Of a DNA stretch of 13,966 bases, positions 5,277 through 12,096 are shown in pieces (position 1 is the first letter of the stretch; every line of letters begins with the position of its first letter). The notes beneath the pieces were generated by a model that did no database searches, was not told the origin of the DNA, and saw nothing but the letters and a program-made list of their open reading frames with translations. Origin of the DNA: a virus; the UHGV virus genome UHGV-0038964; one strand, given 5' to 3'. Both the position numbers and the translations under genes were made by a program.

Positions 5277-5459
5277 TGTCGCGCTGAGATATTAATTCCC
5301 TTGCTGTTTAACCATTTTTTGTGTGTGCTGGTGAGCGTGTGAAGGCTCAATTTGTTGCCCACCAGTATTTACTATTTCTAAGCTCCACAGTGTCACTTCC
5401 GCACAAACAACTTAGCGCGGAATCAGTATTCGGCCCAAGATGTAAAAAGCCAACCTGCG

Positions 5460-5726
5460 TTATGGTTCGCATTTCCAAATAGTGTTCTGAACGCCCGTGC
5501 CGGGCGCGAGATGTGGATTAGCGTTCGCGCTATGCTGATATACGGCTTTAGACTTTCCATATTGCTGACAGGCTTTATCTGCGGTTTTTTGCAGGCTATC
5601 CAGCCCATACCAGCCATCAGACTGGATGCTTACCTTTTCACCGTCATTGTATTGCACCATTGCACACCCGGACATAGCCAGCATCGCACCGACAATAACG
5701 CTTTTCCATAAAACTCTATGCAACAT
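5460..5726 (-). CDS. Small lipoprotein (about 88 aa)
   Basis: Signal peptide MLHRVLWKSVIVGAMLAMSGC with a lipobox-like MSGC cysteine; the true start is probably the ATG at 5724-5726 (the track start at 5732 is a TTG). Confidence 0.55.
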   Translation of the reverse strand: MLHRVLWKSVIVGAMLAMSGCAMVQYNDGEKVSIQSDGWYGLDSLQKTADKACQQYGKSKAVYQHSANANPHLAPGTGVQNTIWKCEP

Positions 5727-5731
5727 ATACA

Positions 5732-5761
5732 AAAATCCCCTCTGTGAATTGAGGGGATTTT
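5732..5761 (-). terminator. Intrinsic terminator ending the upstream minus-strand operon
   Basis: Stem 5732-5742 pairs with 5751-5761 (AAAATCCCCTC / GAGGGGATTTT); on the - strand the stem runs into TTTTTGTAT. The same stem supplies the GAGGGG Shine-Dalgarno of the lipoprotein gene. Confidence 0.6.
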
Positions 5762-5795
5762 AGCATGGTGATCAGATATCAGCTTTATCAGGAAT

Positions 5796-6545
5796 TTAAT
5801 CAGCCTCCAGTGGCAATAACGCCTTAGCCATTTCATGAACCAACATGGCATCAATGACGCCTAGCGTATGGCCCGGCTTAATCTTTAATGCGGCCTCAAG
5901 ATAGCCTCTTTCCAGAGTGGTTTTTACGCTTTTCCTGGGCGCCTGTTGGGAACTATCCGGAAGATCCGGATGGTTCCCAGCCTCATAAGCTATCCGCAAC
6001 CAGTGCATGAATGTTTCCGCAGACACACAACCGCAGTCCACATCGATTTTCCCGCGTTGCTGTTCCAGCCATTGCCCAAAATCCAACCTGTAAGCCTTAC
6101 TTTCAAGTTCATCGCCATTGAACTCGACTTTCTGCGACGCTATGAGAGCTGATTCGTATTGTTCGCGAGTGACAACTGACTGGTATTCATCGCTATCAAG
6201 ATCACCAATTGGAAGCTCAATCTCACAACAAAAATTGCGCCCAAAGAACGTGTCTTTTTTGTGGTCTGAGCCAAAAGCAAAAGTCGCGCATGGCGCCATT
6301 AAATTGGCACTGAGCAGGCGACAATCGATCATACCATCAGGCCACCCGCCGCACTTAGGCAGCTCCTTCACTAACAAGTCGATAAGCTTCATTTTTTTAT
6401 CATCTTTGCTAGTTGCTAACGCCATTTTTGCAAGTCCAAATACTTCATCTGCCGTATATCCAGCACCGTGACCATACATTTCGATACGGGAAATAATCTC
6501 TGATATACGCTCTTTAGTGATTCTGGTCATTTCTTTTTGCGCCAT
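5796..6545 (-). CDS. Hypothetical protein (249 aa), last gene of the operator-gated operon
   Basis: ATG at 6543-6545; long ORF with no recognisable motif; followed by the terminator at 5732-5761. Confidence 0.5.
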   Translation of the reverse strand: MAQKEMTRITKERISEIISRIEMYGHGAGYTADEVFGLAKMALATSKDDKKMKLIDLLVKELPKCGGWPDGMIDCRLLSANLMAPCATFAFGSDHKKDTFFGRNFCCEIELPIGDLDSDEYQSVVTREQYESALIASQKVEFNGDELESKAYRLDFGQWLEQQRGKIDVDCGCVSAETFMHWLRIAYEAGNHPDLPDSSQQAPRKSVKTTLERGYLEAALKIKPGHTLGVIDAMLVHEMAKALLPLEAD

Positions 6546-6901
6546 TTCTTTTCACATTCCTTAGTCCATTTTTCAATGTTCATTTTGGCAATATCAGTCA
6601 TTCCATCGCCTAAGAAATACCTTTCCCGGTATGTCTTGCACTTAAACCACACTACAATAGCCACCAGCCAGAAAATAAAAGGCCAGACAGCAATACCAAC
6701 TACAGCCACGATAAAGTCCAATAGACACAAATGAAGCTCCCCTACTTCTGTTTCAGGCAATATCTTTAAAGAGTTAAACAGCAGACTGAACGAATGGTCG
6801 TATGCAGTAGCGCTATAAGACATACAATCCATATAATTAAAATCATAGCCTGCGGCTGCCGCCCATAATGGGCAGTCAAGAAAATGTTTGAATGTCATCA
6901 T
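6527..6901 (-). CDS. Hypothetical membrane protein (124 aa), Lys-rich C-terminus
   Basis: Tandem ATG ATG at 6896-6901; hydrophobic stretch LCLLDFIVAVVGIAVWPFIFWLVAIVVWF; 3' end overlaps the start of the 249-aa gene by 19 nt. Confidence 0.5.
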   Translation of the reverse strand: MMTFKHFLDCPLWAAAAGYDFNYMDCMSYSATAYDHSFSLLFNSLKILPETEVGELHLCLLDFIVAVVGIAVWPFIFWLVAIVVWFKCKTYRERYFLGDGMTDIAKMNIEKWTKECEKKWRKKK

Positions 6902-6967
6902 ATAAATTTAATCAGTTACACAGTGTGGCTGCTTCCCTGCCGTAACAGCAGGGTAATAAAGTTATAA

Positions 6968-7132
6968 TCAGTCTCCAGATAGAGATATAGCTAACGCACC
7001 AACGAGGAATAAGGTGCTACCAGCCAATGCACCGCAGCTCTCCGTTCCCCATTCAACGCCACCAGCCAAAGCCACAAAAAAACCACAAACACAGACAAAT
7101 ATAAACGTCGCCCAAAACTGTTTCTTTTTCAT
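6968..7132 (-). CDS. Unannotated small membrane protein (54 aa): MKKKQFWATFIFVCVCGFFVALAGGVEWGTESCGALAGSTLFLVGALAISLSGD
   Basis: Found by hand translation. Its ATG (7130-7132) overlaps the TAA stop of the upstream 97-aa gene (TAATG coupling); GGAG upstream; two hydrophobic segments. Confidence 0.45.
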   Translation of the reverse strand: MKKKQFWATFIFVCVCGFFVALAGGVEWGTESCGALAGSTLFLVGALAISLSGD

Positions 7133-7425
7133 TATGGGGTGCTCCAGTTATCTTCAATTACAATGCTCAACCTTTGTAGCCATTCTGCTAATTTCAGCAT
7201 TGCTTCTCTTTCGCTTAAACCACGCGGGAAATCATCAAGCGATATTGTTGGCTTGAAGTTCCCGAAATTATCCATTTCAACTGTCAGATTTTGCTCTAAC
7301 ACGGTATTCCTGACACGGCTATTGTGCCGAAGCAAATATACTGATCGTGATTCATTAGTTTTGTGGTCGAATTGATATTCGGTAAGTATCATCTGGCTTT
7401 TGCCATGACTATTACCTCTCCACAT
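7132..7425 (-). CDS. Hypothetical protein (about 97 aa)
   Basis: Track ORF 7132-7512 trimmed to the ATG at 7423-7425 (MWRGNSHGK...), which has a GAGG Shine-Dalgarno; the upstream part of the track ORF is instead taken by the 40-aa peptide in another frame. Confidence 0.45.
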   Translation of the reverse strand: MWRGNSHGKSQMILTEYQFDHKTNESRSVYLLRHNSRVRNTVLEQNLTVEMDNFGNFKPTISLDDFPRGLSEREAMLKLAEWLQRLSIVIEDNWSTP

Positions 7426-7432
7426 ACTTACC

Positions 7433-7555
7433 TCACTTAATAAAACAACTCCATGCGTAGTTGATGATTTTTTCCCACGCAATATAAATCTGCACTCCAG
7501 CAGTAAAACCAAAGCCTACAATTGCTGAAAAAATCAAAACATTTACTTTTGACAT
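7433..7555 (-). CDS. Unannotated small hydrophobic peptide (40 aa): MSKVNVLIFSAIVGFGFTAGVQIYIAWEKIINYAWSCFIK
   Basis: ATG at 7553-7555, TGA at 7433-7435; single transmembrane-like segment; ends 8 nt before the 97-aa gene start. The Shine-Dalgarno is weak. Confidence 0.35.
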   Translation of the reverse strand: MSKVNVLIFSAIVGFGFTAGVQIYIAWEKIINYAWSCFIK

Positions 7556-7603
7556 TATAAAATTTCTCTCGGTGTCGTAGGTGATAGCACCATAATTGAT
7601 AAT

Positions 7604-7936
7604 TTAGTGAGTTAGCAGCTTCATTTTTTTGATGATTTCCGCATGAGCATCATCGTTATCAACACTTAGCTCGTTTAATGCTTCTCGCACTACATCAACT
7701 TCTTCAGGCTGAAAGAAGTCGTCGCGGTAATCACCAAATAGAACCGAAACCAGCCTGGCACCAGCAACATCAAGATTAGCGCTAACAGGTGGCTCGATAT
7801 CTCGCCCACAATTCCAGGCTTTTTGGGCTTCTTCCAGCGTGTAAACATGAGCGCGATCGATATCAGAGCTGTAACCATTGCCGTTATGGCAATGGAATGA
7901 AGCGTTATTACCCACAGTTTCACGCGAGCACATCAT
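7604..7936 (-). CDS. Hypothetical acidic protein (about 110 aa)
   Basis: The track ORF begins at a TTG (7978) overlapping the upstream gene; the first ATG pair at 7931-7936 lies just after that gene's stop, so the start is placed there. Confidence 0.45.
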   Translation of the reverse strand: MMCSRETVGNNASFHCHNGNGYSSDIDRAHVYTLEEAQKAWNCGRDIEPPVSANLDVAGARLVSVLFGDYRDDFFQPEEVDVVREALNELSVDNDDAHAEIIKKMKLLTH

Positions 7937-7946
7937 GTAAAAACGG

Positions 7947-8528
7947 TTACTCACTGGTTGCCCCCTGAATACGCTCAAACTCGATTACCCAAACCCAGGG
8001 ATTAGCGTTCCAACTTTCTTCGCCATAAATTGATTCCCATAGGCTACGGAAACCTGGGTAATGCTTATCGCCAATGAGGGTAAATTCTGTTGGTGCGCCC
8101 TCAGCCCTTGCATCGCATTCGCTGATATCGTTCAACCGCTCAACGCGCACGTTGGTAATTTCCAGCAAAATGCGCGATGCCCAGCGCGGCATGTGAATTG
8201 ATGGCGTCCACTTTTCTGATACTGGCTTATTACAAACCTCAACCGGAACCCGGTGCGTTTGTTCTGTCCAGGAGTTACGCACGCTTGCGCGATAAACCAG
8301 CGTTGCGACGTCCGTCGCTTTGCCATGTACCCGGTAGGTTTCACGAACCCAAATACGATCTCCCGGTTGACCATATGGACAATGTTTAGCAAGCAACTCT
8401 GCGGCCACTGCCCGTCCATAGAATTTTTCTTCAACAATCCTGCGAGTCTGTGTTTTATTCCCGCCAAGAATTGCCCGGACCATCTCATCGTTGAAAATCA
8501 TGCCGCGCTCTTTCACTTCGCCTTTCAT
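7947..8528 (-). CDS. Hypothetical protein (193 aa), tentatively ASCH-like (N-terminal MIFNDEMVRAILGGNKTQTRR)
   Basis: ATG at 8526-8528 with AAGGGGGA upstream. The GxKT.TRR segment resembles the conserved ASCH/PUA-like motif; this is recalled pattern, not an alignment. Confidence 0.5.
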   Translation of the reverse strand: MKGEVKERGMIFNDEMVRAILGGNKTQTRRIVEEKFYGRAVAAELLAKHCPYGQPGDRIWVRETYRVHGKATDVATLVYRASVRNSWTEQTHRVPVEVCNKPVSEKWTPSIHMPRWASRILLEITNVRVERLNDISECDARAEGAPTEFTLIGDKHYPGFRSLWESIYGEESWNANPWVWVIEFERIQGATSE

Positions 8529-8537
8529 GCATCCCCC

Positions 8538-8624
8538 TTACCCATGCGCGACAATGCCGCCAAAAGTGATAGAGAACAGCCAGAAATAGATCGCGGCCAT
8601 AATGATTTTGAATGCCGTGTTCAT
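8538..8624 (-). CDS. Unannotated small hydrophobic peptide (28 aa): MNTAFKIIMAAIYFWLFSITFGGIVAHG
   Basis: ATG at 8622-8624 with AGGAG about 8 nt upstream; TAA at 8538-8540, overlapping the Shine-Dalgarno of the 193-aa gene; first ORF downstream of the C1-operator-like site. Confidence 0.35.
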   Translation of the reverse strand: MNTAFKIIMAAIYFWLFSITFGGIVAHG

Positions 8625-8652
8625 ATTTTCAGCTCCTGTGATTGATTGGATA

Positions 8653-8683
8653 CATGCCGCGCCTTGCGGCATGTTTTTATTTT
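8653..8683 (+). terminator. GC-rich palindromic hairpin (CATGCCGC-gcctt-GCGGCATG) followed by TTTTTATTTT on the + strand
   Basis: Read directly. On the + strand it has the form of an intrinsic terminator, although no convincing + strand gene precedes it; on the - strand it sits in the 5' leader of the operon, between the predicted promoter and the 28-aa ORF. Confidence 0.45.
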
Positions 8684-8706
8684 CACTTTCTCTGTTTTAA
8701 AAATCA

Positions 8707-8723
8707 ATATTTATTAGAGCAAT
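8707..8723 (-). promoter_or_regulatory. C1 operator-like 17-mer (minus-strand reading ATTGCTCTAATAAATAT) with promoter-like elements just downstream
   Basis: 16/17 match to the C1 consensus ATTGCTCTAATAAATTT. On the - strand it is followed by TTGATT, a 17-nt spacer and GAAAAT, a plausible -35/-10 pair for the operon at 5796-8624. Confidence 0.55.
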
Positions 8724-9166
8724 TATTGTTGATGGAGAAGCGCGTTTTCATACTCCCTGACCATTAACGTAAGCACGCCGTGCCTCCTGAAAACACGCGC
8801 CACTTCAATCTTATCTTCCAGCGCGAACGCGATTTTACTTAGACCAATTTTCTTAAGGAGATCAATCTTTGCTGGGCCGTCATTTCTGTCATCGGTGGCA
8901 GGACGCATAGATAGCAAAGGCTCAGCCCCGTTTGTTACGTACTTCCGCAGCCAGGCTCGTGTTTTATCCCTTGCGATCTCACAGCGCCCGGTTACAAACC
9001 AGACCGTGTAAACGTTAAATAACTGGCGCACAATATCAATAACTGGAGTTATGGGAGTATCAGTGTCACAGGCGAGATTAAACTCGTTCCAGTCCTTTGT
9101 TAATGCACCTTTACCTGGTGGCGGAAGCAAATGCAGTCTGTCTTCAGTTGCCTCTGATATTGTTCC
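8723..9166 (-). pseudogene. 3' portion of a HAD-superfamily (DxDGT) phosphatase gene split by the IS3-family element
   Basis: The reading frame is open from the insertion junction at 9166 to the stop at 8723. Joined to the opposite flank it reads ...PYIVIVDIDGTISEATEDR...VWFVTGR...DKTR...ATDDRNDG, the HAD motif order, resembling the phosphatase domain of polynucleotide kinase-phosphatase. Confidence 0.6.
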
Positions 9167-9184
9167 TGAATCGCCACAGATAAT

Positions 9185-10090
9185 CTAGACACTTCCGAGC
9201 CGCTGATAATATTGTTTTTCGTATTCAGTTGGTGGCATATGATCACTCGAACCATGCCGACGCTTACTGTTATAAAACATTTCGATGTAATCAAAAATAT
9301 CACCGCGAGCTTCTTCTCGCGTTCCGTAGATCTTTTTCTTTATCCGTTCACGTTTCAGTAACTGGAAAAAACTTTCTGCGACTGCGTTGTCATGACAGTT
9401 ACCGCGACGGCTCATACTGCCCTCCAGCCCGTGTGATTTCAGGAACGACTGCCACTCATAGCTTGTGTACTGACTGCCTTGATCAGAATGAACCAGCACC
9501 TGCTTTTGAGGATTACGTCGCCACACGGCCATCAGAAGTGCATTCAGGACAATATCCTTTGTCATCCGGGGCTGCATTGACCAGCCAATAACTTTGCGCG
9601 AGAACAGGTCAACAACCACAGCCAGATACAGCCAGCCTTCGTGAGTCCGGATGTAGGTGATGTCCGTTACCCAACGCTCATCCGGTGCTTCCGGGTTGAA
9701 CTGCCGCTGGAGCCTGTTGGGCGTCACGATGCTGGTTTCACCCTTACGTGCCCGTGGGCTACGGTACCCGACCTGAGCCCTTATCCCGGCACGCTTCATC
9801 AGTCGCCAGACACGGTTAACTCCGCACTGTTGTCCGGTATCCCGCAGGTCGAGGTGGATCTTGCGATAACCATAAACGCAACCCGACTCCAGCCAGAACT
9901 GCTTTATCAGCCCCGTCAGTCTCAGGTCAGCATGATGCCGCCGTGAATCCGGCTGCTGAAGCTAGGCGTAAAAACCACTCGGATGCACATCCAGCACCCG
10001 ACAAAGCAGTCGGACAGGCCAGCAATGGGTGTTGTCACGGATAAAGGCGTACCTCAGTCGGACAGCTTTGCGAAGTACGCCGCGGCTTTT
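9185..10090 (-). pseudogene. IS3-family transposase orfB (DDE catalytic domain), interrupted by an in-frame TAG
   Basis: The orfB frame is open from the slippery site (about 10090) and reads ...LLCRVLDVHPSGFYA, then TAG at 9962-9964, then LQQPDSRRHHADLRLTGLIKQFWLESGCVYGYRKIHLDLRD... continuing into the track ORF 9185-9799. Confidence 0.7.
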
Positions 10091-10332
10091 TTTAATATGT
10101 CCCGTTCGTCGGTAACCCGCTTCAGCTCTTTCTGGAGGCGTCGGATCTCAGCCTGAGCGTCTGACTGGACTTTATTGGTTGAGGAATCCGGGCCATATGC
10201 CTTTATCCAGGCATAAAGACTGTGGGTGGTGATACCGAGACGTGTTGCCACGCTGGAAACAGAATGGCCGCGATCAACAACCTGTTTTACCGCTTCAATT
10301 TTAAACTCTTCGGGATAACGCTTACCGCTCAT
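10054..10332 (-). CDS. IS3-family transposase orfA (helix-turn-helix / leucine-zipper part)
   Basis: ATG at 10330-10332 with GAGAGG upstream (the track start at 10338 is a GTG); ends ...DILKKAAAYFAKLSD. The ATATTAAAAAAAGCC slippery heptanucleotide at 10085-10099 marks the -1 frameshift into orfB. Confidence 0.8.
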   Translation of the reverse strand: MSGKRYPEEFKIEAVKQVVDRGHSVSSVATRLGITTHSLYAWIKAYGPDSSTNKVQSDAQAEIRRLQKELKRVTDERDILKKAAAYFAKLSD

Positions 10333-10392
10333 GGGCACCTCTCTTTAAGTCATCTTAAATGACTCTGAGGTGTCTGTTAAACCCGTGGCGAT

Positions 10393-10461
10393 TCATCCAT
10401 CAATATCAACTATGACGATATACGGACGTTCCTGGTGTGCGTGTTTATTGAAAATACTCAA
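10393..10461 (-). pseudogene. 5' portion of the same HAD phosphatase gene (LSIFNKHAHQERPYIVIVDIDG), cut off by the IS
   Basis: In frame with the 3' portion once the IS and one TCC copy are removed. The only candidate start is the TTG at 10459-10461, with GGAGGG 4 nt upstream; the IS terminal TGA now supplies the stop. Confidence 0.45.
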
Positions 10462-12030: not shown

Positions 12031-12096
12031 ATTGCTCTAATAAAAAACGTGATGAGTGTACATCACGTTTTAAAAATATGAAATTATTAGAGCAAT
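12031..12096. promoter_or_regulatory. Two inverted C1 operator-like 17-mers flanking a 10-bp-stem hairpin
   Basis: ATTGCTCTAATAAAAAA at 12031-12047 (+ orientation); ATTGCTCTAATAATTT as the reverse complement of 12081-12096; between them AAACGTGATG-agtgta-CATCACGTTT (12045-12070), which on the - strand is followed by TTTTTT. Confidence 0.55.

Follow-up and report, generated by a model that had tools for sequence, protein, structure and literature searches.

What is a tightly packed run of eight small genes doing behind a near-consensus C1 operator in the UHGV virus genome UHGV-0038964? In the stretch analyzed here (13,966 nucleotides, hereafter the window), eight tightly packed open reading frames (ORFs) lie on the minus strand between that operator at 8707-8723 and a hairpin at 5732-5761, and a sequence-only reading had taken them for a candidate undescribed accessory module. 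We identify the block, with a probability of roughly 0.8, as the form taken in the present element by Op88, the C1-controlled early operon of P1-like phage-plasmids, in which a fixed regulatory head is followed by exchangeable cargo with dispensable host-interaction functions. The earlier description of the sequence is borne out and the module is indeed accessory, but the claim of novelty is wrong: the locus is known and the allele is new. Its operator, its operon structure, and its hypervariability have been published (P1 and P7 GenBank records, PMC9603915, PMC6906374), and public databases already list all eight products, including three peptides described as unannotated, as hypothetical or membrane proteins. 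A known locus has been re-identified, so little changes. Worth retaining are p28, a gene unannotated in P1 and P7, and the proposed reassignment of the PmgT family to YqfB-type ASCH enzymes, which is drawn from sequence and a structural model.

The operator and the regulatory head

The operator (8707-8723, minus strand) reads ATTGCTCTAATAAATAT and has a single mismatch to the asymmetric 17-bp consensus ATTGCTCTAATAAATTT. A scan of the window allowing up to three mismatches gave 4 sites against a chance expectation of 0.05, and the remaining three correspond to P1 operators, two at pmgR (12031-12047 and 12080-12096) and one near c1 (381-397). The site abuts the stop codon of pap, the same position as the annotated OpmgT (formerly Op88) of P1 and Op(hea) of P7, and its sequence is identical across the 32 P1-like loci that we surveyed together with the window (P1, P7, SJ46, two plasmids, and 27 IMG/VR contigs). 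An exact-match scan for the operator in the genome contig collection found no match.

A sigma-70 promoter equivalent to P1pmgT lies at 8679-8707 on the minus strand (coordinates transferred from the P1 annotation). It consists of a -35 TTGATT (8707-8702), a 17-nt spacer, and a -10 GAAAAT (8684-8679), and the -35 shares one base with the operator. The P1 record holds two predicted promoters over the Op88 operator, of which the stronger is the one found here. A generic promoter scan of the window did not flag it, and its geometry is retained (TTGATT-17-AAGAAT) in divergent relatives with a second leader type, which we call type B. The c1 gene is intact in the window (283 amino acids [aa], 492-1343), and its DNA is 97% identical to the P1 region. 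The site at 8707-8723 therefore has what characterizes a P1-type operator, that is, a consensus match, an overlap with a promoter that can be occluded, and a C1 repressor encoded by the same element. By analogy with the Op88 annotation of P1, C1 would be expected to bind and repress here.

At the predicted 5' end of the transcript, a stem-loop with a 9-bp stem (8652-8674, minus strand) is found, and the 69-nt leader folds with -20 kcal/mol (z = -3.3). The type-B leaders (L006, L024, L026, and L029) have an identical operator and -35, and at unchanged distance from the -10 they carry an unrelated 7-bp hairpin in a segment that folds no better than shuffled sequence (z = -0.7). A 5' hairpin may be kept in both leader types despite the differing sequence, which we hold loosely because the type-B hairpin is weak and not distinct from shuffled sequence. 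Read on the plus strand, 8652-8674 is a good intrinsic-terminator-like hairpin followed by TTTTATTTT, which could act as a stop for antisense transcription from within the operon; the type-B relatives lack this property.

All eight reading frames behind this head are intact. Seven of the lengths given before (28, 193, 40, 97, 54, 124, and 249 aa) stand, and the gene given as 110 aa most likely starts at GTG 7954, judging from sequence, and encodes 116 aa. Translational coupling, suspected earlier for several genes, is apparent in the sequence at four places: an 8-nt GTGAGTAA overlap between p193 and p116, the p40 stop codon within the ribosome-binding site (RBS) of p97, a TAATG overlap between p97 and p54, and a 19-nt overlap between p124 and p249. 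Hydrophobic segments were detected in p28, p40, p54, and p124, and the three small peptides among these are conserved as ORFs in related elements, a test that could have gone against the earlier reading.

Locus identity and cargo exchange

The P1 pmgT operon shares with the window an operator of nearly the same sequence at the same position, the promoter, the 5' hairpin, the 28-aa leader, the placement between pap and hot immediately downstream of pap, a PmgT-family protein as the first large gene, and transcription toward hot. It differs in its cargo. The window lacks pmgU and pmgV, homologues of which were not found apart from a 100-nt similarity at the 3' end of the p249 gene, and p193 lacks the C-terminal extension of PmgT; p116, p40, p97, p54, p124, and p249 are not in P1, and in the window the operon is set apart from upfM-hot by a terminator and a lipoprotein gene.

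Variability at this place has been described as hypervariable "region 8" from pmgT to humD in P1-like elements (PMC9603915) and as "RD-5" between pap and lxr, one of the regions of difference (RD) tied to low-G+C loci of the P1 backbone (PMC6906374). This also holds for the window, where G+C drops to about 0.40 at 6400-7800. In P1, CRISPR interference found pmgT, pmgU, pmgV, upfN, upfO, and hot to be non-essential (PMC10695390), and a deletion survey cited there reports the same for pmgT, pmgU, pmgV, upfM, upfN, and upfO. In JL22, replacement of pmgT had no effect on lysogeny (PMC9603915); the main text of Gonzales 2022 does not name pmgT. The P1 counterparts are dispensable, lysogeny of JL22 is unaffected, and P1-like elements differ widely in gene content, which makes the module accessory.

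Alignment with P1, P7, and SJ46 shows how the present allele was assembled. Window positions 7949-9166 are 98% identical to P7 and SJ46, and 5950-6911 and 7144-7795 match SJ46 genes J46_0087-0091 at 93-96% identity. Relative to SJ46, the homologue of upf87.4 (J46_0096) has been lost, with the breakpoint in a 17-nt sequence repeated at both gene junctions, and 2.4 kb from J46_0095 to J46_0091 have been lost at a 21-nt shared sequence, which made the p116 fusion. The window in turn gains a 232-bp segment with p54, has a p249 without a 53-aa insert, and closes with a different 3' module. The cargo is thus a reduced mosaic, P7-like near the operator (hea operon, upf86.8 to upf91.x) and SJ46-like further on (within J46_0086-0098), that arose by two deletions and two insertions (p54; terminator with lipoprotein gene). 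The regulatory head is conserved, and the cargo is exchanged at short repeats at the gene junctions.

A comparison of conserved and variable genes among P1-like elements had been proposed, and the 33 loci bear it out: the p28 head is constant, and the cargo varies. The leader always comes first and a PmgT-family gene usually second, later content differs, and the string J46_0091-p40-p97-p124-p249 recurs as a sub-module.

In one locus (L025, 2327-7751), a type I restriction-modification system (hsdR, hsdS, and hsdM) on the opposite strand takes the place of all the cargo from the p28 leader to phd-doc, and the replacement begins directly after the leader stop codon and RBS. A further locus (L011) diverges at the same point, from about 3570, with the same sequence. 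This explains the notes in the P1 GenBank record on the EcoDXXI and R124/3 hsd flanks. The type-B locus L029 holds a D12/Dam-type adenine methyltransferase gene within the operon, and in L026 the operon continues into pacA- and pacB-like genes. In a P1-like plasmid with the lipoprotein module (L130, 7427-8113), genes for a Tad2-like protein (PF11195, anti-Thoeris family) and a dUTPase lie just past humD; anti-defense cargo therefore occurs nearby in some relatives.

The locus behaves as a cargo slot behind a fixed regulatory head, able to take up nin/ea-type genes, orphan methyltransferases, or an entire type I restriction-modification system, and this behavior bears on the trade in accessory and defense genes among phage-plasmids. 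The likeness to the nin/ea (Ead/Ea22/EaA) regions of lambdoid and other temperate phages lies in small, packed, coupled, and dispensable early genes, in mosaic exchange at gene boundaries, and in the homologues that p40, p97, and modules of p249 have there. Unlike those regions, which are governed by lambda-type pL/pR antitermination, the window genes stand under a P1-type C1 operator on a plasmid-prophage.

The leader peptide p28

The first gene, p28 (8538-8624, minus strand), encodes a predicted single-pass membrane peptide of 28 aa and has a GGAG RBS 7 nt upstream. It is first in 33/33 loci, P1 and P7 included, and its stop codon abuts the RBS of the first cargo gene. Only the P1 and P7 reference records leave the 28-aa ORF unannotated; they have no coding sequence between the operator and pmgT or upf86.8 and so lack a conserved membrane-peptide gene at the head of the Op88 operon. 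The peptide is identical in P1 and identical or near-identical in all elements with the leader found here (type A); common polymorphisms are synonymous, and the three amino-acid variants are singletons.

A 44-aa version is called by PGAP, with an upstream ATG that sits about at the predicted transcription start. A 4-nt indel in three loci (L021, L022, and L028) breaks the 44-aa frame and spares the 28-aa frame, and the type-B relatives are likewise out of frame. Sequence comparison thus shows 28 aa to be the correct length. Identity to the type-B homologues is 58%, and these retain the RBS, the ATG, and the hydrophobic core in a peptide of 46 aa with a variable C-terminal tail. Within type B, the membrane core shows 4 synonymous and 0 non-synonymous changes and the extra tail 6 and 7, respectively, small numbers that are consistent with purifying selection on the membrane-spanning segment.

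An isolated 81-bp remnant (residues 18-44 of the 44-aa reading, that is, p28 minus its first residue) occurs beside IS1 in conjugative F-type plasmids, such as the IncF plasmid pAVS0968-A (L005, 3001-3081) and about 370 others. We considered these fragments as independent conservation of p28 and rejected this, as they lie next to IS1 and hsd loci; they look like fossil P1 flanks rather than independent genes.

p193 and the PmgT family

The second gene, p193 (7947-8528, minus strand), is homologous to P7 Upf86.8 and to the first 232 residues of P1 PmgT (48% identity, E = 7e-59), and 44,693 cluster representatives match it at E <= 0.001. The sequence-only reading had queried a likeness to ASCH and assigned no motif in the operon. 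At the level of fold, the likeness is confirmed by an AlphaFold model (predicted local distance difference test [pLDDT] 93.2, predicted template modeling score [pTM] 0.87) in which p193 has a PUA-like ASCH beta-barrel. A motif can also be assigned: the octapeptide G23-N-K25-T-Q-T28-R-R30 has the YqfB-type form GxKxx(T/E)xR with the same spacing as in YqfB, and G23, K25, T28, and R30 are conserved in 57-59 of 59 diverse homologues. E143 aligns with E74 of YqfB and is conserved in 58/59. Essential residues of YqfB are Lys21, Thr24, and Arg26, and its catalytic acid is Glu74 (PMC6972931). From the predicted fold and the matching catalytic residues, we take p193 to be a YqfB-type ASCH enzyme.

Escherichia coli YqfB, an ASCH-domain N4-acetylcytidine (ac4C) amidohydrolase (PDB 9kyf and 1te7), is about half as long as p193, which has insertions between the core strands and falls under the Pfam ASCH threshold; the substrate of p193 could differ. 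Ten of the 59 homologues match Pfam ASCH at E <= 0.01. A 2026 preprint reports that many ASCH proteins strip ac4C from tRNA. On the ASCH assignment, PmgT and its huge phage protein family are mislabelled as morphogenetic, and the predicted ASCH fold with the full YqfB catalytic set makes a testable biochemical hypothesis.

Two relatives with diverged copies of the cargo string encode, upstream of p97-p54-p124, a separate protein of about 93 aa (L124, 481-762; L125, 448-750) that carries the NCBI name "ASCH domain-containing protein" and a classical GEKTEEYR motif. The gene pool thus has two distinct ASCH-type genes in circulation.

The remaining cargo genes

The p116 gene (7604-7954, minus strand) has a GGGGG RBS and overlaps p193 by the 8 nt noted above. 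Its start convention matches the annotated P7 gene junctions, and the 116-aa form is called on >228 contigs and in most databases. The protein is an in-frame fusion of N-terminal residues 1-60 of a P7 Upf87.6-like protein with residues 15-77 of a protein like SJ46 J46_0091.

The 40-aa membrane protein p40 (7433-7555, minus strand; phrog_5525, E = 1e-24) has its ATG and 40 codons intact in 76 of 79 IMG/VR loci (51-100% identity), with 23, 15, and 31 variable columns at codon positions 1, 2, and 3, the third being the most variable. Like p54, it has same-length homologues, about 50-70% identical, in other phages; those of p40 include 40-aa proteins of Uetakevirus phages, encoded beside Eaa/ea22 genes. 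p40-p97 as a conserved two-gene module beyond P1-like elements was rejected, since the gene after p40 in Uetakevirus is unrelated. p97 (7132-7425, minus strand; phrog_1258) is a soluble protein whose length is confirmed by uniformly 97-aa homologues, some of them in the nin regions of Klebsiella lambdoid prophages alongside Ead_Ea22 genes. Its predicted structure, a four-stranded sheet with a long helix (pLDDT 84.7), gave no informative structural neighbor.

p54 (6968-7132, minus strand) is a membrane peptide with two predicted hydrophobic segments. It is carried on the 232-bp segment (6912-7143) that is not in SJ46 and is inserted between the p97 and p124 genes. L124 and L125 encode 52-aa homologues (71-73% identity) within an unchanged p97-p54-p124-p249 gene order, a 53% identical one occurs in L126, and one of 55 aa is found in the virulent Cornellvirus VSiA; a loop AGGV(E/Q)WGT between the two hydrophobic segments is common to all. 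The exact segment is rare (11/5426 complete E. coli genomes, on plasmids in every case). In the 66-nt spacer after p54, within the same insert, a 7-bp stem-loop (6935-6953, CCCTGCT...GGCAGGG) has no T run, and the surrounding 81 nt fold no better than shuffled sequence (z = -0.95).

p124 (6527-6901, minus strand; phrog_2638, E = 1e-60) is a single-pass membrane protein that has its hydrophobic segment at residues 64-82 and a basic C-terminal tail; its homologues (30-42% identity) are in Yersinia, Klebsiella, Proteus, and Morganella phages. p249 (5796-6545, minus strand) is a modular EaA/Ea22/DUF551-like mosaic that equals SJ46 J46_0087 minus the 53-aa insert (E = 1e-155). It matches 8 partial PHROGs, and its residues 149-205 are common to EaA/DUF551 proteins of Stx phages. 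The idea that p249 is a truncated PmgT was rejected, as there is no homology between the two.

A PHROG scan placed the products in families of unknown function only. PDB sequence and profile searches with p193, p249, p97, p124, and the neighboring lipoprotein found no match even at E <= 10, and the only Rfam match, to GcvB, was sub-threshold and taken as chance.

Proposed function and alternative explanations

Under the Op88 reading, C1 would silence the operon in the plasmid state, and in the absence or inactivation of C1, upon infection or derepression, the genes would be expressed early. The products would then supply dispensable host-interaction functions of the lambdoid nin/ea type from a shared gene pool: p193 might act on a modified nucleoside or RNA, for example N4-acylcytidine, and p28, p40, p54, and p124 may be small inner-membrane proteins acting on membrane targets, while cargo genes would be swapped by recombination at the short sequences common to gene junctions. 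A bolder version, which we offer very tentatively, is that PmgT-family proteins are early ASCH amidohydrolases that remove N4-acyl groups (e.g., ac4C at the wobble position of elongator tRNA-Met) or hydrolyze a related nucleoside in host takeover or counter-defense, that operator, hairpin, and p28 form a dedicated platform for cargo expression, and that p28 is an unrecognized conserved early membrane protein of P1.

Several observations weigh against the Op88 reading as it applies to the present copy. Its early expression and repression by C1 are taken over from P1 by homology. A demonstrated function exists for none of the products, and scans of nine products with Pfam (curated cut-offs), NCBIfam, and PADLOC gave nothing at or near threshold except a weak ASCH match of p193 to PF04266, at 13.1 bits against a gathering score of 21.2 (E = 0.16); hhalign of p193 with an NCBI-named ASCH family gave a probability of 2% and aligned the N-terminal motif alone. 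The surroundings of the operon also differ from those of P1. At 1343-1517, c1 is joined via 174 bp without a P1 match to a truncated pdcB, and P1 89730-93230 (the end of pdcB, Olpa, lpa, pacA, and pacB) is absent from its usual site. This deletion structure comes with an operon that is 100% identical in at least eight plasmids of E. coli, Escherichia albertii, Shigella, and Salmonella, and such identity among carriers is a mark of recent spread, not of selection. The p116 fusion points to erosion of the operon, and in the present element the operon may never be expressed and may be decaying.

The most serious competitor of the Op88 reading is that the block is an inert remnant, a permanently repressed and decaying passenger on a P1-derived plasmid, an account compatible with the origin proposed here and possible, though we do not favor it. 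The window and all aligned plasmids with 100% identity have lost lpa, pacA, and pacB; the operon may thus be carried silently in this lineage, and the earlier expectation that the block is switched on at induction has to be tempered. No head, tail, or terminase genes are listed for plasmid pESA118_2. It has mobI, TraI-domain genes, qnrS2, tet(A), and numerous insertion sequences, which fits the P1-derived plasmids in PMC10879196, and it looks like such a plasmid rather than a phage. Besides the p116 fusion, pap just upstream is split by an insertion sequence. Decay is, however, not visible in the eight intact frames. In L124 and L125, the p97-p54-p124-p249 copies have diverged to 70-90% identity and still have unbroken frames, which means that selection acted on the genes until recently at the least.

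That p28, p40, p54, and p124 exclude competing phages during derepression, for example by a block to DNA entry, would suit an operon in which four of eight products are small membrane proteins. The type I restriction-modification system of L025 occupies the same hotspot, so defense cargo does land there, and the neighboring gene at 5460-5726 encodes a putative lipoprotein, a class that often serves receptor blocking. We nevertheless think a superinfection-exclusion or defense module unlikely, as PADLOC found no match for any of the nine products at E <= 0.1, the stable carrier state, where exclusion pays most, leaves a C1-repressed operon switched off, no homologue with a recorded exclusion phenotype was found in the literature searched, and P1 sim lies elsewhere, with simABC placed in another region by the published list of variable regions (PMC9603915). 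A lysis cassette, in which one or more of the small membrane peptides act as holin, pinholin, or antiholin, had also been suggested and is most improbable. Its appeal comes from p54, which has two predicted membrane-spanning segments as in class II holins and a distant homologue in VSiA three genes downstream of a lysin gene; but no endolysin or spanin is in or beside the block, neither p28 nor p54 has the charged C-terminal tail that typifies holins, the promoter is an early C1-controlled one and not an Lpa-dependent late one, and the lysis genes of P1 itself lie elsewhere. Plaque formation by P1 does not, moreover, require the counterpart operon (PMC10695390). The same study found pmgT, pmgU, and pmgV non-essential by knockdown and deletion, which speaks against the morphogenetic role implied by the name pmg ("putative morphogenetic") and by the UniRef name "Morphogenetic protein," a label inherited from the P1 annotation. 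Gene content varies among P1-like phages with the same virion genes, the predicted p193 fold is enzyme-like and not structural, and homologues sit in nin/ea regions of siphoviruses and podoviruses with unrelated virions, which leaves morphogenesis scarcely credible.

Neighboring elements

The Op88-type operon is followed by an intrinsic-terminator-like hairpin (5732-5761, minus strand), which had been called a strong terminator and has an 11-bp stem (5 G-C), an 8-nt loop, the sequence TTTTTGT, and a folding z of -3.3. Its stem-loop and U tract are those of a predicted intrinsic terminator. It is absent from P1, P7, and SJ46 in the alignment; in L125 it is 100% conserved amid diverged flanking coding sequence.

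Next to it and outside the operon proper, an 88-aa putative lipoprotein (5460-5726, minus strand; phrog_7757, E = 1e-53) has a signal-peptide-like N-terminus ending in the lipobox-like LAMSGC. Terminator and lipoprotein gene form a lineage-variable insertion (5337-5800), and the lipoprotein module recurs after p249-like genes, at the operon end, in several P1-like plasmid lineages; tblastn of the lipoprotein against the phage collection found no match.

An insertion sequence of the IS3 family (1.23 kb, 9167-10395; HTH_Tnp_1 and rve ORFs on the operon strand) splits pap. It is flanked by a 3-bp target duplication (9164-9166 and 10396-10398) and is missing from otherwise identical plasmids. Outward transcription from this element could in principle run toward the Op88 promoter.

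The left arm of the 5732-5761 hairpin coincides in part with a possible extended -10, TGcTAAAAT (5770-5762). Transcripts starting from it would have an incomplete hairpin, and the GAGGGG RBS of the lipoprotein gene would be freed. This promoter-hairpin segment is 100% conserved in L125.

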